From an uncultured Bacteroidales bacterium (GTDB lineage Bacteria; Bacteroidota; Bacteroidia; Bacteroidales; Bacteroidaceae): 64,000 nt of DNA. Location of the stretch: assembly GCA_902779845.1 (NCBI GenBank), contig CACZCZ010000018.1, forward strand, positions 14,747 through 78,746, given 5' to 3'. The notes beneath the pieces were generated by a model, which saw nothing but the letters and a program-made list of their open reading frames with translations, was not told the origin of the DNA and ran no database searches. This document shows positions 23,609-31,600 of this stretch, piece by piece. The stretch's first letter is position 1. Every line of letters starts with the position of its first letter. Both the position numbers and the translations under genes were made by a program.

Positions 23609-24208
23609 TCAATCATAGATAATGTGCGGATTCCTTTCCGCCGGTGTCTTCCAGTCTATGTTGAAGCCATATCGCAAGATATCCTTCTTCAGCCCCCATA
23701 TACTATGGCAAATGCCTATCATCCAGTTCTCGGGTATGAAGACCATGTCCATGAAGGAATCTATGCTTTTTTCAAGGCTGGGTGAAAGGAATGGGCTCAA
23801 TCTGTCATCCTTTCCCTCCTCCCGATGTGCATTCCACAAGTCATAAGCCCGCATGATTTGCCTACCTAAGATCTCCTCTTTCTCAGGATAGTCAATCTCG
23901 ATTCTCGTCCGCGGGTCTATCAGCATGGCGAGCCTCTTCAAGAGCGAACCGATTCGTTCCACCTCTTTCTGGAAAGGCTGTACCTTCTTCTTTTCAGACC
24001 ACATTGACCTTGGGTCAGCCAGCGGCAACACGATGTCCGGCTCCGTTCCAATCCAATACACCGATGCCTCGCAGTTACCCACAACGCTACACATCAGCCC
24101 TAGCCGCCTCATCTCAGGATCAAAGAAGCCGCTCAGGTCCTTTATCCTAATGAACGCGCTGATGCCCAGCTCCTTCATCTTTGCTTCTGTTAGTACGATG
24201 TGTTCCAT
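23609..24208 (-). CDS. Hypothetical protein (199 aa), orphan
   Basis: Clean ORF in the island. Its promoter (24321-24355) has the same palindrome-plus-box architecture as the WYL and DUF1566-like genes. No motif recognised. Confidence 0.6.
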   Translation of the reverse strand: MEHIVLTEAKMKELGISAFIRIKDLSGFFDPEMRRLGLMCSVVGNCEASVYWIGTEPDIVLPLADPRSMWSEKKKVQPFQKEVERIGSLLKRLAMLIDPRTRIEIDYPEKEEILGRQIMRAYDLWNAHREEGKDDRLSPFLSPSLEKSIDSFMDMVFIPENWMIGICHSIWGLKKDILRYGFNIDWKTPAERNPHIIYD

Positions 24209-24320: not shown

Positions 24321-24355
24321 CAAAGGTATAATATAGTAGCGAACACTATGTTCGC
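24321..24355 (-). promoter_or_regulatory. Promoter with operator palindrome (GCGAACA-cta-TGTTCGC, 10-nt gap, TACCTTTG)
   Basis: The minus strand reads GCGAACATAGTGTTCGC-tactatatta-TACCTTTG. The architecture is identical at 28065-28099 and 29145-29179. Confidence 0.6.
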
Positions 24356-24375: not shown

Positions 24376-24921
24376 TTATAGCTGCAATGGTTCCGTGAGA
24401 TCACCTATAGGATGATAATTAAAACCCAAATAACGATTATACCACTCTTCTGGTTTCCAGCCATCTAAAGATACCCTCTCTCCCGTTTCATTATCCACGA
24501 TTATCGGAGTAAAAACTTTAATCGAATTGTATATTCTTACATTACCAGTTGCTGTTCTCTCCACTCTTCCAACGTCATAAAGCGAACATATGTTATATTT
24601 TGCATCATCTTTTGTATAGATGCGAAATAAAGGGCCATGTTTACTGGGCACATCAACAATTTCTCCATCTATAGGTTTTAGTAATTCAGAGAAAGGAAAC
24701 GGAGACTTTTCATCTTGTCCAAGTTCATGATTGTGAACGACCTCTATGAGATCTGTAAAACCACTACGATTCTTCTTCCCAAATAATGGTAACACAAGTA
24801 GTACTTGTTGCGGATTATTAACACTAGCCACACATACCTTTAGATATCTGTCTAACTGTTCTTCGAAGGATTTCTTTTTGAATGGTACAGTCTCCCAGTT
24901 TGTTAATAAATACTTAGCCAT
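24376..24921 (-). CDS. Hypothetical protein (181 aa), third gene of the retron operon
   Basis: The ATG lies 7 nt after the stop of the 275-aa gene, with the same strand and AT-rich composition. No motif recognised. Confidence 0.7.
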   Translation of the reverse strand: MAKYLLTNWETVPFKKKSFEEQLDRYLKVCVASVNNPQQVLLVLPLFGKKNRSGFTDLIEVVHNHELGQDEKSPFPFSELLKPIDGEIVDVPSKHGPLFRIYTKDDAKYNICSLYDVGRVERTATGNVRIYNSIKVFTPIIVDNETGERVSLDGWKPEEWYNRYLGFNYHPIGDLTEPLQL

Positions 24922-24928
24922 ATTATTT

Positions 24929-25756
24929 TTAAATTTTAGACAATAATTCTGTATTTATTGTGTTCGCCATATCCTTAATTGCATCTACCACTTCTCCGAA
25001 TGGTTCTCTACGACGCCAAATTTGACGACGATATTTCCAATATGCAGATTTATCAAGGTTGTTAAATCGCAAAAGTAAGTCATTATTGTCTTTGATACCA
25101 TTCCAATATACTTCCCCTTCCTTGGTTAACGGAAGTTTCATAGCTAATAGTTTTGCCTTAAAGTCTTCTAAGTTCTTTGTTTCATCCAAACTTCTATGGC
25201 TTTGTTCGTTTCTTACTTCTCGCGCAAAATCCAAAACCTCAATTTGTCTTTTATTCATCTTACCTGAAAATGCAGACAATTTGGCTGCCAATGAAAGACC
25301 TTTTATAGAATCTATTTTCTCTATATTTGTCCATTTTGCATTATCGTTAATATATCTGATGACGTCTTCAATAGATTCAAACCTGTTCATGTAGAAATAA
25401 TTAAGCAAATGCTCTACTTGAAGCATTGCATACCTACAAAACTCTGAAAAGTCAATTTTATGGGACCGAACTCCCATCCGATACCTTAGCATTTCTCGAT
25501 AATCAGAAACTAGTTGCTCTCTGACATAATCTTCTTTAATAAAAGAATAGTCAATATCTGGAGTTGCACTATCTAATTTATAGTCCAGCCCCAGATATTT
25601 CTCGATGTCAGCGATTTTACGATTACTTGAAGAGTCATAGGTCGGCACATCTAACAACTCTCGTAGTCCTTTTACAAAATCGTCATTGCCAGGTTCATCA
25701 ATGAGGCGCTTGATGAACTGCAGGAGCTTAATTAATTGTTCTTTATTTTGTGCCAT
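24929..25756 (-). CDS. HEPN-like protein (Rx4H motif RNEQSH), putative retron effector
   Basis: The ATG lies 1 nt after the RT stop. FAREVRNEQSHRS (R182-H187, nt 25196-25213) fits the R[NHD]xxxH HEPN RNase motif. The protein looks predominantly helical. Confidence 0.6.
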   Translation of the reverse strand: MAQNKEQLIKLLQFIKRLIDEPGNDDFVKGLRELLDVPTYDSSSNRKIADIEKYLGLDYKLDSATPDIDYSFIKEDYVREQLVSDYREMLRYRMGVRSHKIDFSEFCRYAMLQVEHLLNYFYMNRFESIEDVIRYINDNAKWTNIEKIDSIKGLSLAAKLSAFSGKMNKRQIEVLDFAREVRNEQSHRSLDETKNLEDFKAKLLAMKLPLTKEGEVYWNGIKDNNDLLLRFNNLDKSAYWKYRRQIWRRREPFGEVVDAIKDMANTINTELLSKI

Positions 25757-25757
25757 A

Positions 25758-27179
25758 TTATAAATAGCTCAAATCAAAATTTGTTTCACAAAGTTTAGCA
25801 AGTATTTCATCCAGCGTCATCGAGGAATGTTTTTTCTTCTTTACATCGACGTCTTTACCAAATGGTCTATGAACGAAATAGAATCTCTCTTTCTGTTGAT
25901 TCTCGCAAAGAGATATTACCAGGTTTGTAAACTCCAATTTTTCAGAATTCTTGCTGATTGTTGCAACTTGTTTCTCACCATCTATCAAGAAGGAAGCGTA
26001 CTTTTTTCCGTTCTTCGATAGTTTCATTTCTACTTTTGTTCCAATTCTTTTCTCAAAATCGGTAATTCTCTGAGTGTCCAAGTACTTGATGGCTGTCTCG
26101 GAATTGCCATATAAAGGAACATCCATAAGTACATTGTATAGCTTCCTCAACTTTACATATGTGGAGTCATCCTCACCCTTGACCATTTTAAGATAATCCA
26201 ACTTTCCTGCTATCACGTTTTCCAAATGCGGAGCCCCCTTTTTAATGTGTCCTTTTTCCAGTTGGTAATGAACAATGAAACGCTGATAGGCTGTTGTCAA
26301 ACCATACTTTTGCCATATATAGAGTATATTTCTTATGTCTTCCACATATTTTCGCGTTACATTTACTTTGTCGCTAACAATCAGTCCCGTGACCTCTTGC
26401 CTGCTCCCTTTTTTCTGTAAACGTGTTTTTACTTCATTGACCTGGAAACCTTGCTCTTGAATGATTTTGAACAGGGTCTTCATGAAACGCGAGTCCTTCT
26501 GATAGACATTGTGCATACTGCTAAATGTAATATCATCTGCATAACGAGAATATATTAATCCATAATGTGAAGCCAATTTTGCAAGTTTATAGTCAAGCTT
26601 ATCGCATATTGCATTTGTGAGTAACGGCGAGGTTGGTGCTCCTTGTGGAAGAATATATTTCTCCGAATCTTCATTCACGAGTTTCATGCAGCACAATCCA
26701 GCAATTACACTGGCGAGTTCTGGATTGAAGTTGAAAGGAGGTACTTTCAGTCGTCCCCACACTCTCGCTTGAGGAATGCTTGGGAAGAAATCTTTAAGAT
26801 CCATGTTAAACACATAGTTCTGTGCAATATGCATTTGTGCATTATCAACGACGGACCGGTTCTGAGCAAAACCCATTGCCCACCGAGATGGTTCATAGAT
26901 GGCCTGAAATATGATGTTCAGATATGTCTGAATAGATTTCAAACCATTTACGGGAGCTGATATATGCCTTGCCCCACCGGACTTTTTTGCAATGAAGAAA
27001 TCGTGATATCGTTTGGAATTGGGAATAGAGAAGGGATTACAATAAAAGTTTATCTGCTTCATAGTAAACGGAAAGCCTCTATCGCCCAACTCGTCAGCCT
27101 TAATATCGTTTAGTAAGGCCAACAAATCAGTTTTATCTTTCATGTGCTCAACACGGAGCTTTATCTTTTCTCTATCCAT
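25758..27179 (-). CDS. Retron-type reverse transcriptase with a ~125-aa C-terminal extension
   Basis: FFIAKKSGGARHISAP; NAQMH (26829-26843); MDLKDFFPSI; LPQGAPTSPLLTNAICDKLD; YADD (26532-26543); RQEVTGLIV (VTG at 26385-26393). Collinear with the Ec86 RT as I remember it. Confidence 0.9.
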   Translation of the reverse strand: MDREKIKLRVEHMKDKTDLLALLNDIKADELGDRGFPFTMKQINFYCNPFSIPNSKRYHDFFIAKKSGGARHISAPVNGLKSIQTYLNIIFQAIYEPSRWAMGFAQNRSVVDNAQMHIAQNYVFNMDLKDFFPSIPQARVWGRLKVPPFNFNPELASVIAGLCCMKLVNEDSEKYILPQGAPTSPLLTNAICDKLDYKLAKLASHYGLIYSRYADDITFSSMHNVYQKDSRFMKTLFKIIQEQGFQVNEVKTRLQKKGSRQEVTGLIVSDKVNVTRKYVEDIRNILYIWQKYGLTTAYQRFIVHYQLEKGHIKKGAPHLENVIAGKLDYLKMVKGEDDSTYVKLRKLYNVLMDVPLYGNSETAIKYLDTQRITDFEKRIGTKVEMKLSKNGKKYASFLIDGEKQVATISKNSEKLEFTNLVISLCENQQKERFYFVHRPFGKDVDVKKKKHSSMTLDEILAKLCETNFDLSYL

Positions 27180-27198
27180 ATAAAAATGAGAGTCTTCA

Positions 27199-27384
27199 AC
27201 AGAACTGCTTTTCTTTGTATATCATAGCACATAACATACTGTTTGTATTTAAATTTGTAAGCCTCGAAGGAAAGCAGAAGTATGCTTTGCACGTCAAGCA
27301 CATATAACAATCTAACATTGTTACCTCAAGCATATGCAAGAGGAATCTACTGAATACGGTAGACAATTTCAAAATCAGTTCTGT
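27199..27384 (-). ncRNA. Candidate retron msr-msd non-coding RNA
   Basis: 14-nt inverted repeat: ACAGAACTGaTTTT (rc of 27371-27384) pairs with AAAAgCAGTTCTGT (rc of 27199-27212), 13 of 14 positions. The 3' arm ends 19 nt before the RT ATG. A G follows the 5' arm directly (27370). Internal hairpins are present, for example TAACAAT-guuag-ATTGTTA and AAAGCA-uacuuc-TGCTTT. Confidence 0.45.
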
Positions 27385-27434
27385 ATCAGACTCTCAAAGA
27401 TCGCTGTTTAACTTTGATTTGGAATGAGGATATA

Positions 27435-28040
27435 TCACCTCGTTTTAACAAGGCGTATAGGTATTGAGAAACCTGAAAAAACAAGAGTAATATCAATGGC
27501 CGTTATACGCAGTGCGCCCTCACCTACACGTCCCATATGTACCGCCTTTTTCTCATTTCCATCCTCCTTATTATTTATCCAGAAATATAAATGCCCAGCT
27601 CCATACATATTTTTATGCACTAGTCTACCAGCTTTTTTGAAACCTGTACTATGGAAATTAATACTATTGCCATTGGGACCTATGAATGTAACACTATACA
27701 AGTCTCCGTATGTGTTTTTTTCCACATGCCTCTCACAAGTCTCAAATAATTCTTTCCACTGTTCTTCTGTTGGAAGATTATAATTTTCTGCTGTCTCATA
27801 TGGCAAGAAGATAACTTTTTTATCTTCCATTTCATAATCAGCCGACCACAACGTTCCACTTGGCAAACCTAGGTCAACATATTCAGTCTTGTTGTCACGA
27901 AGATCGATTGGAATCTCTTCCTCTCGGTCTTTGTAACCATCACGATACCCTTCTTCATACGCTTTTGCGAGCGCATTTGCTATCACTTCGTTTGATTTCT
28001 CTGCTGCATATTGAGCAGCCTTCTCTGTCAGCTCTATCAT
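27435..28040 (-). CDS. DUF1566 / FISUMP-like domain protein, no signal peptide
   Basis: YVDLGLPSGTLWS, LPTEEQWKELF and GPNGNSINF...G..YFW segments match the Bacteroides DUF1566-type family as I recall it. The N-terminus is a helical region rich in A, E and K. Confidence 0.6.
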   Translation of the reverse strand: MIELTEKAAQYAAEKSNEVIANALAKAYEEGYRDGYKDREEEIPIDLRDNKTEYVDLGLPSGTLWSADYEMEDKKVIFLPYETAENYNLPTEEQWKELFETCERHVEKNTYGDLYSVTFIGPNGNSINFHSTGFKKAGRLVHKNMYGAGHLYFWINNKEDGNEKKAVHMGRVGEGALRITAIDITLVFSGFSIPIRLVKTR

Positions 28041-28064: not shown

Positions 28065-28099
28065 CAAAGATATATCCCGTTAGCGAACTCTATGTTCGT
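28065..28099 (-). promoter_or_regulatory. Promoter with operator palindrome (ACGAAC-N5-GTTCGC, 10-nt gap, TATCTTTG)
   Basis: The minus strand reads ACGAACATAGAGTTCGC-taacgggata-TATCTTTG, 25 nt upstream of the ATG at 28040. It overlaps the 3' end of the WYL gene. Confidence 0.6.
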
Positions 28100-29127
28100 A
28101 AACTACCATATTTTTCATTCATAGCAGAAATATGCTTTTCTATTTCGTTCTTGACATCGCCGTCGGACTGTAAGACGATGAGGTCTGCACCGAAAGAGGT
28201 TAGTTCACGGATGAGTTCAAAGTTGTTGATACAGTCCAGCGTGAAGAAGAGGCCGCCTTGGAGTTGGGGATATTCAGCACGCAGTTGCAGATCTTTCTCT
28301 CCTTTGAGGGGAGTGTAGCTGCCATGAATCGGCTTTGTATCGACATAACCTTTCGATGCATCACTCACCCAGCATAGGATATGTTCAACTGGACGATCCT
28401 CGTAGAGTGTAACACCTACGATGTCTTCAAAGCGGTCTGCAAGGTCTTCCGGACATTTCTCATAGTGCTTCTCTGGAAATGGATCCACTGCATTGATTCT
28501 GTCGAGAGCGAAGTGAAGGATCTTCTTGTCGCTGTCAGCAGCACCGAGCAGATACCAACGGTCGTTGTACTGCTTTAACAGGTAGGGATGGAAGTCTATG
28601 CTACGAATAGTCTCATCTGAGAAGGTATGGTAGGACAGCCTGATGACCACCTTATTAGATATATAGTCGAAGAGTGTTCCCAGGAGGTTGGAGTTCTTCA
28701 GGTAGGGATTGTTACTGAAACTTATAATCTGACGGTGGCTCCGCACTTCTGCATCTGCCTTCAGACGGTCCAACCAAGCAAAATGATCCAGACCGTTGAA
28801 CTGACCAATAGTGTTCAGAACTTCATGCAAGAGCAATCTCTCTTCACGACGCATCTCCTGCTTAAAAATAGAGAATGAGTGCTTGTCATACGCAATGCAG
28901 TTCTTGCCATTCTTCACGAATCGAGCAATGGGTGCATTGAAGGGCGCATCTTCAAGCGCATTAATATCTTTCTCTATGCAGCGTTGTCCAACCTCAAGGA
29001 ATCCATCAAACCGCAATCTCTCATTCACGCCATCTGTCAAGTCGTGAATGTCATAATAGTGATAGCGGTCGGACAGCAGTCTATCCAGATGCTTATATCG
29101 AATGAGAGCGTTCTTGTTCGTTGGCAT
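28090..29127 (-). CDS. WYL-domain transcriptional regulator (HTH-WYL-WCX type)
   Basis: N-terminal HTH (ALIRYKHLDRLL...RCIEKDINAL) and WYL motif NDRWYLLG. ATG at 29127 is preferred because the TACCTTTG box at 29145-29152 lies inside the longer ORF. Confidence 0.8.
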   Translation of the reverse strand: MPTNKNALIRYKHLDRLLSDRYHYYDIHDLTDGVNERLRFDGFLEVGQRCIEKDINALEDAPFNAPIARFVKNGKNCIAYDKHSFSIFKQEMRREERLLLHEVLNTIGQFNGLDHFAWLDRLKADAEVRSHRQIISFSNNPYLKNSNLLGTLFDYISNKVVIRLSYHTFSDETIRSIDFHPYLLKQYNDRWYLLGAADSDKKILHFALDRINAVDPFPEKHYEKCPEDLADRFEDIVGVTLYEDRPVEHILCWVSDASKGYVDTKPIHGSYTPLKGEKDLQLRAEYPQLQGGLFFTLDCINNFELIRELTSFGADLIVLQSDGDVKNEIEKHISAMNEKYGSLRT

Positions 29128-29144: not shown

Positions 29145-29179
29145 CAAAGGTAATTATTGGTTGCGAACGCAATGTTCGC
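29145..29179 (-). promoter_or_regulatory. Promoter with operator palindrome (GCGAAC-N5-GTTCGC, 10-nt gap, TACCTTTG), likely autoregulatory
   Basis: The minus strand reads GCGAACATTGCGTTCGC-aaccaataat-TACCTTTG, 18 nt upstream of the WYL ATG. Confidence 0.6.
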
Positions 29180-29335
29180 ACACCTCAAAAATCCTTTAGA
29201 CAAGTTTTCTGGCCACAAAGATACAACTTATTTTGATTCACTGAGCAAAAAACCTCAAAAAAAAATTTTTCATAAGGCTTGTGAAGCAGAAAAGGAGCGA
29301 TGCCGCTCCTTTTCGTTTCGACTCTATGATGATTA

Positions 29336-29944
29336 TTATTTCTTTGTTCTATCAACAATTACCCAATGGCCACCAAAATCTGCGCCAGCACGACGAATCA
29401 GACTGTCGCGTTTAAGGGTCTCGATGCACCGCTGTATATAACTTGAAGCCTTTCCTGTTTCCTTTACCAACTCAGCTCTGGTTATTTTCGGATTCTTCTT
29501 TATGAGTTCATAAACTATATCTATGGTTGTCTGACCACCTGTCTGACCACCTGTCTGACCACCTGTCTGACCACCTATTTGACCACCTATTTGAGTACTA
29601 TTCACATTATTCCTCTTGAACGTTACTTTCACTCCGCCATAGGCCGACTCAATCTTGGGCATAGGCAATCCAGCACCCTCAAAGCCCTCACGAATTTTCT
29701 TATAGCCACGTCCCCAGGCATCAATGAATCCGGCTTTGAAAAAGGCATTGGCAATATTTCTGTTGCGGGGACGCGAGGCATGTTGTTGAAGCAACGTCTC
29801 TGGAGTAAAGCCAACGGGCAATTCGCCTTCGTTCCATATCTCACAATAGTCATCCCATACACGCATCTGGATGTGAGCTCCCGTGTAGTCTTTATGGATG
29901 ATAGCATTATATAGTATTTCACGCAAAGCCTCCTCAGGTTCCAT
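29336..29944 (-). CDS. Truncated paralogue of the upstream gene (HATPase_c_4-like domain + repeat linker + wHTH); possible gene remnant
   Basis: EALREILYNAIIHKDY starts the HATPase_c_4-like region, and no AlbA_2 N-terminus is present. Similarity seems to continue 5' of the ATG up to an in-frame stop. Contains the GGQIGGQTGGQTGGQTGGQT linker. Confidence 0.55.
   Translation of the reverse strand: MEPEEALREILYNAIIHKDYTGAHIQMRVWDDYCEIWNEGELPVGFTPETLLQQHASRPRNRNIANAFFKAGFIDAWGRGYKKIREGFEGAGLPMPKIESAYGGVKVTFKRNNVNSTQIGGQIGGQTGGQTGGQTGGQTTIDIVYELIKKNPKITRAELVKETGKASSYIQRCIETLKRDSLIRRAGADFGGHWVIVDRTKK
29529..29594. repeat. 12-nt in-frame tandem repeat (GTCTGACCACCT x4 plus 2 variants)
   Basis: Read directly. 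Encodes (GGQT/GGQI)n in the linker of the 202-aa ORF. Confidence 0.9.
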
Positions 29945-29980
29945 TCTGCGAGGAACCGATTATATAATGCTTTCGTCATT

Positions 29981-31600
29981 TCATGACTCTTTCTTTTTCT
30001 TCAAAACCATCCATTCGCCACCGAATGTGCCACCTATTCGCTCAATAACAAGGTTTTCTTTTAGTTCCTTCAGGTCACGCTTGATGGTCTTTTTATCAAC
30101 ATCGAGTTTTTCTGCCATTGTCTCTACGCTGACATGGGAATCAATAGAAATCATGCCAACGATGGCTTGTTGACGCCTTTTACGTTTACTGATAACGAGT
30201 TCTCTTTCAAACGGCTTTAACGAGAGTTCCTCGTCTGTCAGCTCATGGATGGAAGTTGGGGACATTTTGTCCTTGTTGGGGACATTATCGGGTTCTGTTG
30301 GGGACATTTGTCCTTCGTTGGGGACATTTTTACCTTCTGTTGGGGACATTTTCCCTGTCTCTGTGACATTTCCATAGACATTTTCGTCCTGATAGGTGAT
30401 AGAGAAGAGGAACTGGGAGCCACTGTTGATCTCGATTTTATAGTTTGGATAGTAGAGCGGTGCATAGCGTAGGATGTTGCGGGTACCGGAGCCCAAATCC
30501 TCTGCCCAGTTCAGTTCGTGGAACACACGCACTAATAGTGGATTCTTGGTGTAGTTGCTGAGTTGTTGGATGGTCAACTCTCCCTCGGGGATCTCAGGCA
30601 ACAAGCGCGTAGGATTCTTCGTCACAACACGGTCTTTGAACACGTGGAAGAAGCAGGCATAACCGCTACTGAAATCAGTATGAACACACATATTGCCAAC
30701 AATCTCTCGGAATAAGTCCCAACGCAGGTTCTGTCGCTGCATGGTGTTGGCTGGCAGATAGAACTTATCAGGCAGATAACGCTCTACAAAAGCTCCCAAT
30801 TGTTCATAGACCTGAATCAGGTTCTGACGAATGGTGCGACGGTCATCATAGCGGCTGGGGAACAGACTCATATCGTTGTATTGGGCGTATGTGCACATGT
30901 GGAATACGGCCTCGAAGCGGTAACGAGGCATAAACTCTGTGATGGCATCTTCTGTGCCAAAAAGTATCAGTGCCGCATATTTCAGTTGTAGCTTGCTTCC
31001 TTCCTGCTTGGCCAGATGTGCGCTGAGCAACATCTCTTCATTCGTCATCTGCAACCAGGCATGTGAGGGTTGTATTGTTGCCAAGATGTTGCGGCAATAC
31101 TGGAAAGTCTTAACATCCAGCTGTTCCATCGTCAGACCTTCCACGATTCGTTCCTCAAACAGATGTGGATTCTTTCTTTCGAAGATTGACAACAATAGTT
31201 CGGGCTGATCGGTCACATCGATGTCAGCATCATCGTTCCTGTCCCAATAGCGGCCTTTGAAGCGATAGACATACTGACCGCAGGGGATATCGAGTTGCAT
31301 TACAGTCTTGTCATCCATCTCCATGATACGAGGCGTGAAATAAGGGCAAGGAAGAAACAGTTCAGGATTGTTGATGCAGTTGATGATGTCAGCTTTCAAC
31401 TTCTCTGCCTTATCGGGATTCACACCAATAACAGTTCCGTCATTCTGCACTCCTACTAGGATCTGCCCTCCGGTATGGTTCAAGAAAGAACACACCGACT
31501 CATAGAGGGATTCCGAAATTTCCTCCGTACAGGTCTTGTATTCTATCTGAGTTCCTTCGCCCTCAAGTGTCAATGCTATAAATTTATCTATTACTTTCAT
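29981..31600 (-). CDS. AlbA_2 (Schlafen-like) + HATPase_c_4 + wHTH putative DNA-binding protein
   Basis: EGEGTQIEYKT...LNHTGGQILVGV AlbA_2-type N-terminus and a C-terminal KTIKRDLKELKENLVIERIG wHTH. Proteins of this family are often mis-annotated as RecG-like. Confidence 0.75.
   Translation of the reverse strand: MKVIDKFIALTLEGEGTQIEYKTCTEEISESLYESVCSFLNHTGGQILVGVQNDGTVIGVNPDKAEKLKADIINCINNPELFLPCPYFTPRIMEMDDKTVMQLDIPCGQYVYRFKGRYWDRNDDADIDVTDQPELLLSIFERKNPHLFEERIVEGLTMEQLDVKTFQYCRNILATIQPSHAWLQMTNEEMLLSAHLAKQEGSKLQLKYAALILFGTEDAITEFMPRYRFEAVFHMCTYAQYNDMSLFPSRYDDRRTIRQNLIQVYEQLGAFVERYLPDKFYLPANTMQRQNLRWDLFREIVGNMCVHTDFSSGYACFFHVFKDRVVTKNPTRLLPEIPEGELTIQQLSNYTKNPLLVRVFHELNWAEDLGSGTRNILRYAPLYYPNYKIEINSGSQFLFSITYQDENVYGNVTETGKMSPTEGKNVPNEGQMSPTEPDNVPNKDKMSPTSIHELTDEELSLKPFERELVISKRKRRQQAIVGMISIDSHVSVETMAEKLDVDKKTIKRDLKELKENLVIERIGGTFGGEWMVLKKKKES
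30255..30372. repeat. In-frame tandem repeat, GTTGGGGACATT core recurring every 20 or 22 nt (42-nt double unit)
   Basis: Cores at 30255, 30275, 30297, 30317 and 30339, plus a degenerate copy at 30363. Encodes KMSPTEGKNVPNEG / QMSPTEPDNVPNKD / KMSPTS. Confidence 0.9.

Follow-up and report, generated by a model that had tools for sequence, protein, structure and literature searches.

A probable retron noncoding RNA with an unstructured template region, encoded beside a clade 8 reverse transcriptase gene in a Prevotella genome

The DNA analysed here is a stretch of 64,000 nt (the window) from contig CACZCZ010000018.1 of an uncultured Bacteroidales bacterium (assembly GCA_902779845.1). The sequence of the locus is identical to that of a contig from a metagenome-assembled genome (MAG) of Prevotella sp. 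Directly upstream of a reverse transcriptase (RT) gene, at positions 27175-27406 of the minus strand, lies an element that is very probably the noncoding RNA (ncRNA) of a retron, the msr-msd. Judged from its combined features, the retron appears to belong to a protease-less, WYL-associated 'type XI-like' lineage of Bacteroidota. An earlier reading of the letters and open reading frames (ORFs) alone (the sequence-only reading) had proposed an msr-msd at this place. The proposal is now supported by three lines of evidence: the RT is of the retron clade, the element has the same placement and orientation in 56 loci, and its closing stem and msr hairpins covary. All window features given below lie on the minus strand.

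The sequence-only reading described a 14-bp inverted repeat around a hairpin-rich leader, and every feature that it listed is found at its given coordinates. The 5' arm ACAGAACUGAUUUU (27384-27371) and the 3' arm AAAAGCAGUUCUGU (27212-27199) pair at 13 of 14 positions, the exception being an A.G mismatch, and G27370 stands directly 3' of the 5' arm. The repeat is real but longer than was proposed. A repeat finder gives 26 nt for its actual length (27371-27396 against 27187-27212, with complementarity of 85%), and beyond a 3x3 internal loop the stem is extended by pairing of UGAGAGUC with GACUCUCA. The distance to the RT start codon (ATG at 27179) changes accordingly. It is 19 nt, as proposed, when measured from the shorter 3' arm, but owing to the second helix past the internal loop the stem ends only 7 nt from the ATG. 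The inverted-repeat score is 16, compared with 8.9 +/- 1.1 (maximum 15) for 1000 dinucleotide shuffles of positions 27100-27500, none of which reached the observed value. The stem-bounded core of the ncRNA (27187-27396) is thus about 210 nt long and is closed by an interrupted 26-nt stem, while the limits 27175-27406 of the whole ncRNA are those of a covariance-model match (see below). The 5' arm of the stem, a1 (27371-27396), consists of three sub-helices (27396-27388, 27384-27376, and 27374-27371), and the 3' arm, a2, occupies 27187-27212. The inverted repeat, RNAalifold, covariation (helices 1-6 in the case of a1), and an arm test all point to these two arms. Folding of the RNA had been suggested as a check. 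For the 221-nt RNA the folding energy is -66.1 kcal/mol (z = -5.25), and none of 200 shuffles is equally stable.

Scans of genomes and metagenomes yielded 107 loci encoding relatives of the RT. The regions upstream of these genes share a common plan. It starts with a near-invariant UCUUUG(A), which is followed by a subfamily-specific arm, UUUGA, and two to three hairpins including the AACAAUGU motif. The 3' part consists of a variable AT-rich stretch, A(C/U)AAAG-AAA, and then the complementary arm. The arms vary in sequence between subfamilies with their complementarity maintained. In the arm test, the 5' arm of each locus was duplexed with its own 3' arm and with the arms of unrelated loci. 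The mean duplex energy is -31.8 kcal/mol for cognate arms against -15.5 kcal/mol for unrelated ones, and the cognate arm beats all unrelated arms in 60 of the 83 loci. Some of the misses (e.g., loci L014 and L028) are due to visibly wrong anchors set by the script.

Run on the nine closest loci, RNAalifold predicts 9 + 9 + 4 bp for the closing stem and adds three hairpins, with the variable region left unstructured. Compensation is already seen for five pairs among these loci, over a short evolutionary distance. A covariance model (R1) built from the nine-locus alignment matches the window element with 214.6 bits (E = 4.7e-49). No other strong match exists within the 64 kb of the window, and the opposite strand gives 19.9 bits. 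Among the relatives, 56 loci have exactly one strong match to R1 each, in every case on the strand of the RT gene, and the match's 3' end is located at the RT start codon or at most about 35 nt away from it. In the window the match abuts the RT start, so that the ncRNA gene adjoins the RT gene on the same strand.

Covariation across homologous loci had been named as a further check, and it is seen in the closing stem and in the two hairpins P2 and P3. In the model-fitted alignment of the 56 loci, 87.8% of the cells pair, as opposed to 38-51% when the partners are slid by one to three columns. Compensatory changes, with both sides altered, are found in 34 of the 40 pairs (16 of 22 in the closing stem, helices 1-6), a level reached by none of 500 shuffles. 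Note that this alignment has been fitted to the structure of R1 itself. Therefore, P2, P3, and the third hairpin P4 were also counted on an alignment made by MAFFT from 26 diverse msr cores, which serves as an unfitted control. Here the three hairpins are 80.7% paired against 30-43% in slid controls, again with none of 500 shuffles reaching the observed value, and 10 pairs are compensated compared with three to five in the slid controls. RNAalifold returned no consensus for the MAFFT alignment of the 26 cores, because columns were shifted by one and P2 contained a 32-nt insertion. Compensatory changes across relatives preserve the closing stem, P2, and P3; P4 is conserved in close relatives only.

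The hairpins follow one another in the msr half. P2 (27345-27364), which had been listed as UCUAC-N8-GUAGA, consists of GUCUAC, an 8-nt loop, and GUAGAU; all six of its pairs (helix 7) are compensated on the model-fitted alignment, and it is 88% paired on the MAFFT alignment. P3 (27324-27343; CCUC..GC-AUAU-GC..GAGG) is a conserved hairpin that the sequence-only reading had missed. Its helices 8 and 9 are 94-99% paired with all pairs covarying, and the corresponding value on the MAFFT alignment is 82%. P4 (27306-27322), previously given as UAACAAU-GUUAG-AUUGUUA, is made of AACAAU, a GUUAG loop, and AUUGUU, and includes the conserved AACAAUGU motif. It is present and is kept across the nine close loci with one compensatory pair (RNAalifold), but it is a weak helix: about every second member of the wider family has its inner pairs disrupted. 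The last hairpin of the earlier list, AAAGCA-UACUUC-UGCUUU (27288-27271), can also be drawn, but it is inside the hypervariable part and is not conserved. The description of the leader as hairpin-rich is true only of the msr half; the presumed msd half is no more structured than expected by chance.

The invariant positions are clustered at the inner end of the closing stem. G27370, A27369, and the opposing AAAG|AAA are invariant in 56 of 56 loci, and the junction as a whole, UUU-G-A / A.AAAG|AAA, is identical in 54-56 of the 56. On the 5' side the invariant positions are U27373-U27371, G27370, and A27369; on the 3' side they are A27218, AAAG (27216-27213), and AAA (27212-27210). In the retron Ec67, the ncRNA lies upstream of the RT gene, is closed by a1/a2, and has its branching G directly after the 5' arm. 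More generally, in characterised retrons the ncRNA is flanked by the repeats IRa1 and IRa2, and synthesis of the complementary DNA (cDNA) is primed from the 2'-OH of a conserved G of the msr (PMC12804668). By this geometry G27370, unpaired and directly 3' of a1, is the best candidate for the branching guanosine and is probably the priming residue, and G27213 is the predicted first templating base. The other conserved G, G27395, is a poor candidate for the priming site because it is paired with C27188.

A resemblance between the two ends of the element may be mentioned here. UCUUUG at the 5' base of the RNA (27395-27400) is identical in sequence to the 5' end predicted for the cDNA, CTTTG (complement of CAAAG, 27213-27218). 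In relatives, a second copy, CAAAGA, at the 3' base pairs with the UCUUUG motif.

The RT gene (25758-27179) encodes 473 aa. The motifs of the retron clade are present: NAxxH of region X (NAQMH at residue 113), VTG of region Y (263), and YADD (213); QGAPTSP is at 179. The best PADLOC profiles are RT-Protease_XI (3.9e-103), RT-TIR_XII (1.9e-100), and RT-Toprim_I-C (2.1e-95). Mestre et al. 2020 place three types in clade 8, namely XI, XII, and I-C (PMC7736814). The top NCBIfam families are retron-TIR and Ec67, both under their cut-offs, and a comparison within NCBIfam gives 2.5e-87 for retron against 1.5e-09 for Drt2. The closest PDB chains are those of the Ec67 RT (9lm3 and 9i2f; E = 6.3e-40) and of the Ec86 RT. 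Pfam finds RVT_1 alone, with no fused protease, TIR, or Toprim domain. The C-terminal extension (the last 123 aa) has no significant domain match, and the PADLOC type XI profile covers residues 51-445 of the protein and ends at profile position 403 of 510. By its motifs and profile matches, the ORF is a clade 8 retron RT.

If the element works as a retron, the RT would bind the msr hairpins and would use the 2'-OH of G27370, which is unpaired at the inner end of the stem, to prime DNA synthesis. The template would be copied from G27213 towards P4, giving a multicopy single-stranded DNA (msDNA) of up to about 90 nt with the 5' sequence 5'-CTTTGTATATC. The complex of RT, RNA, and DNA may then restrain the HEPN-like protein of 275 aa encoded next to it until a phage disturbs the complex. 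Expression would probably start from a promoter at 28072-28065 controlled by the WYL-domain protein of the same cassette.

The presumed msd template (27213-27305) is hypervariable and AT-rich. In the 56 loci this segment is 70-115 nt long with 74% A+T, and it is hypervariable even where the RTs share 70-85% identity. The msDNAs of characterised retrons fold into a stem-loop, for example one of 28 bp in Ec78 (PMC12804668). The presumed msd here differs from Ec78 and the other characterised retrons in having no stem-loop, and a long msd hairpin was rejected as a candidate feature, none being found in the window or in the relatives. The unstructured template is the main departure from classical retrons.

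This property and four other results weigh against reading the element as an msr-msd. A search for an msd stem-loop gave no excess over shuffles in the window (z = -0.56 for the cDNA and -1.06 for the RNA), and across the 56 loci the median z is -0.54 with no value below -3. An Rfam scan of positions 26800-27800 at permissive thresholds found no matching family, only one chance match to a snoRNA. No msDNA, transcript end, or branch point has been observed for the lineage, and the retron census (PMC10849725) is without a relative. In the window, the ncRNA has no proximal TAnnTTTG promoter. Lastly, the assignment of the 275-aa protein as the effector depends on sub-threshold matches.

A rival reading makes the RNA a structured 5' leader or an RT-binding scaffold that regulates expression or assembly of the RT and gives no msDNA; the long closing stem beside the start codon could, for example, be an attenuator or terminator. 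Such a role would suit a candidate template lacking an msd-like hairpin. It would also suit a stem that reaches to within 7 nt of the RT start codon and has UUUUU after it in the window. However, a run of at least four T follows the stem in just 22 of the 56 loci, and on this count the closing stem with its U-run was rejected as an intrinsic terminator. The start codon is not where the invariant residues cluster; they sit at the junction of G and template. Furthermore, the RT retains an intact YADD and the retron-specific motifs, and clade 8 RTs of types XI, XII, and I-C made RT-DNA in the census (PMC10849725). A leader of this kind is thus quite unlikely.

It is very unlikely that the RNA templates cDNA in a non-retron manner as in DRT/UG systems, by rolling-circle or concatemeric synthesis or by priming without the 2'-OH of G27370. 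The template, unstructured and AT-rich unlike a classical msd, and the likeness of UCUUUG at the 5' base to the predicted cDNA end CTTTG would agree with such a mode. However, retron profiles match the RT about 80 orders of magnitude better than Drt2 does, and the geometry of a1/a2 plus G is of the retron type. The probability that the repeat has no RNA function, being due to chance or forming the ends of a mobile element, is negligible, since AT-rich composition alone speaks for it while the repeat score was unmatched in the shuffles, covariation over 56 loci contradicts it, and the arms diverge between subfamilies yet remain complementary.

As for expression of the retron ncRNA, the sequence-only reading had placed a near-consensus -7 box, GATCTTTG (27402-27395), upstream of the 5' arm. 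The box is located as given, but it is a conserved RNA motif and unlikely to be a promoter. Its UCUUUG portion (27395-27400) is identical in 55-56 of the 56 loci, and among relatives the motif is either paired with UCAAAGA or bulged out within the closing stem. Another 20-30 nt or so upstream, most relatives have a TAnnTTTG box of the canonical Bacteroidota type. The promoter reading of GATCTTTG is unlikely because the motif is kept even in these relatives. In the window, the ncRNA directly follows the stop codon of an ORF of 201 aa, and the nearest TAnnTTTG box on the same strand is the one at 28072-28065, ahead of that ORF. With no proximal promoter, the 5' end of the ncRNA would need processing or a weak internal promoter.

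The box at 28072-28065 is part of a module which exists in three copies of the form (A/G)CGAAC-N5-GTTCGC, 10 nt, TAnCTTTG, and the three bracket the retron cassette. One (28065-28098; ACGAACATAGAGTTCGC, 10 nt, TATCTTTG) is ahead of the 201-aa ORF, and another (29145-29178; GCGAACATTGCGTTCGC, 10 nt, TACCTTTG) is ahead of the WYL gene. The remaining module (24321-24354; GCGAACATAGTGTTCGC, 10 nt, TACCTTTG) comes after an ORF of 181 aa and ahead of one of 199 aa (23609-24208). CGAAC-N5-GTTCG has only these three exact matches in 64 kb, and in 51 related loci the palindrome is found at matching places, often directly upstream of the ncRNA. The palindrome is probably the operator of the WYL regulator, to which the protein would bind. 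The module at 28065-28098 is likely the promoter of a transcript carrying the 201-aa ORF, the ncRNA, and the RT gene; a WYL-controlled promoter at this place would put the ncRNA of this genome on one transcript with the 201-aa ORF.

WYL domains sense single-stranded nucleic acids as ligands, and the WYL protein could for this reason read single-stranded DNA (ssDNA). It is conceivable, though doubtful, that the retron makes an atypical product, a hypervariable, AT-rich, and near-stemless ssDNA of about 70-115 nt, and that the WYL protein reads its level or integrity and acts through the CGAAC-N5-GTTCG operators. If true, this would couple reverse transcription to transcriptional control of the HEPN-like effector, a wiring that would be new for retrons.

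The genes around the ncRNA recur in a common order: WYL protein, variable gene, ncRNA, RT, and a protein of about 275 aa. The WYL-domain protein (28090-29127; Pfam WYL 3.3e-12, PADLOC WYL) is a probable transcription regulator. Its gene is at offset -2 from the RT gene, and a WYL gene is found upstream of the RT in 70 of the 107 loci. The mechanical ORF starts with GTG at 29181, which is upstream of the gene's own promoter box (29152-29145), and many tblastn alignments of relatives begin at residues 15-19 of this long form. The in-frame ATG at 29127 (345 aa), located downstream of the promoter box, is the likelier start. In the PDB the protein has no match, including among the solved WYL proteins. 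Between the WYL gene and the ncRNA, the variable 'X' slot is occupied by the 201-aa protein (27435-28040), which has a weak match to the FISUMP domain and tblastn matches in 12 loci. Elsewhere this slot holds unrelated proteins, for example a 282-aa WG_beta_rep protein in Alloprevotella rava (L009:1805-2653).

The likely effector is the 275-aa HEPN-like protein (24929-25756), which has a homologue directly downstream of the RT gene in 63 loci. In 44 sequences of the family, R182-N183-x2-S186-H187 is invariant. The AlphaFold2 model is all-helical (pLDDT 87.5) and gives weak fold matches (E = 0.07-0.9, TM 0.27-0.42) to MtlR, HepS (the Gifsy-1 anti-phage protein), and YggD, which we take to be HEPN-fold proteins. 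Pfam matches to DUF4145, HEPN_Swt1, RiboL-PSP-HEPN, pEK499_p136, Abi_C, and HEPN_LA2681 are all below the gathering score, and a search of the PDB with the family sequences gave nothing meaningful. From these likenesses the protein is assigned, with moderate confidence, as a HEPN-like effector. The 181-aa protein that follows (24376-24921) has tblastn matches in six loci, only among the closest relatives of the window, and no family match in Pfam, PADLOC, or NCBIfam.

In three sister loci (L014:2971-5718, L016:4254-6009, and L071:2353-4085) the HEPN-like gene is replaced by PF22561 ('HisKin-conflict', a Histidine Kinase domain known from conflict contexts). Some loci have this domain fused to the RT (915 aa in L014), others encode it in a gene just downstream, and then comes an unannotated protein of about 210-235 aa. 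The upstream RNA of L071 is matched by the covariance model, and the similarity of L014 and L016 comes from reading the sequence. The sister loci represent an effector swap on related RTs.

The closest description in the literature is a preprint of May 2026 (Toro, bioRxiv 2026, doi 10.64898/2026.05.14.725207). The retron group TXI_C2like defined there is found in Bacteroidota only and has WYL genes at offsets -1 or -2 and an uncharacterised accessory cluster. Its ncRNA, found with CMfinder and R-scape, has three stem-loops and is flanked by a1/a2 (10.64898/2026.05.14.725207). The locus shares with TXI_C2like the Bacteroidota host, a protease-less clade 8 RT whose C-terminal extension is variable and which has NAxxH and VTG, a WYL gene no more than two genes upstream, and an uncharacterised accessory gene. 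It also shares an upstream ncRNA with three stem-loops and a1/a2, which was obtained here with RNAalifold from nine loci and is likened by description. Every feature of this description that was open to testing is found here, and the locus is accordingly taken as a member of this recently, and only computationally, described kind. The 275-aa protein may be the accessory cluster AC006 of the same preprint. Going beyond the consulted sections of the preprint are the unstructured msd, the invariant G/AAAG junction, the CGAAC-N5-GTTCG modules, and the HEPN-like character of the downstream gene.

Compared with canonical type XI retrons (Mestre et al. 2020, PMC7736814), the RT has RT-Protease_XI as its best PADLOC profile but no fused trypsin-like protease, and the candidate effectors are separate genes. 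It differs from type XII (RT-TIR) in having no TIR match, with Retron_TIR_antiphage scoring 293.6 bits against a cut-off of 600. Retron-Eco2 (Ec67; type I-C1, clade 8) has the closest RT with a solved structure; the Toprim nuclease fused there is absent here, and retron_Ec67_fus reaches 256.4 bits, short of its cut-off of 450. A separate gene with an Rx4H motif of the HEPN type beside the RT gene is shared with type IX, which has a HEPN effector (Mestre et al. 2020). However, the RT of type IX belongs to clade 7 and not clade 8, and the HEPN matches here are under curated thresholds. As in the BrxR/CapW WYL regulators (Picton et al. 2022, PMC9122601), a WYL gene heads a defence cassette and palindromes overlap the promoters. 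Unlike these regulators, the WYL protein has no detectable sequence match to solved WYL proteins, and its binding to the palindromes is putative.

Types XI and XII were listed by Mestre et al. 2020 without a determined ncRNA (PMC7736814), and Khan et al. later reported validated ncRNAs for some clade 8 retrons of type XI (PMC10849725). The supplement of the latter census contains no experimentally tested relative of the present retron and lists no XI-like retron from Bacteroidales; its sole Bacteroidales entry of clade 8 is an Alistipes I-C3 retron. The UG27/Minerva preprint was set aside, its subject being another class of RT. For the WYL-associated Bacteroidota branch, prior evidence of an ncRNA consists of one computational preprint, and the present locus is an independent and well-resolved example. 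It yields exact coordinates of the arms, hairpins, and junction, together with a candidate priming G, a template start, an effector, and regulator sites. Retrons from Bacteroidales are also of practical interest because RT-DNA has a use in genome editing and few tools exist for gut Bacteroidota. Should the apparent lack of an msd hairpin be confirmed, it would broaden the known range of retron templates.

Three of the related loci carry labels from outside Bacteroidota. L008, L011, and L015 are assigned to Lachnospiraceae, Lactococcus garvieae, and Nitrospirota MAG bins, respectively. They are on short contigs and are probably mis-binned, and L008 and L011 have TAnnTTTG boxes of the Bacteroidales type and the same cassette. 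In the window, two genes with Schlafen AlbA_2, HATPase_c_4, and HTH domains are located just upstream of the cassette (29336-31600). Beyond them and on the other side there are housekeeping genes encoding a PfkB kinase, fructose-1,6-bisphosphatase, and PrmA, implying that the retron exists in a small islet and not in a prophage.

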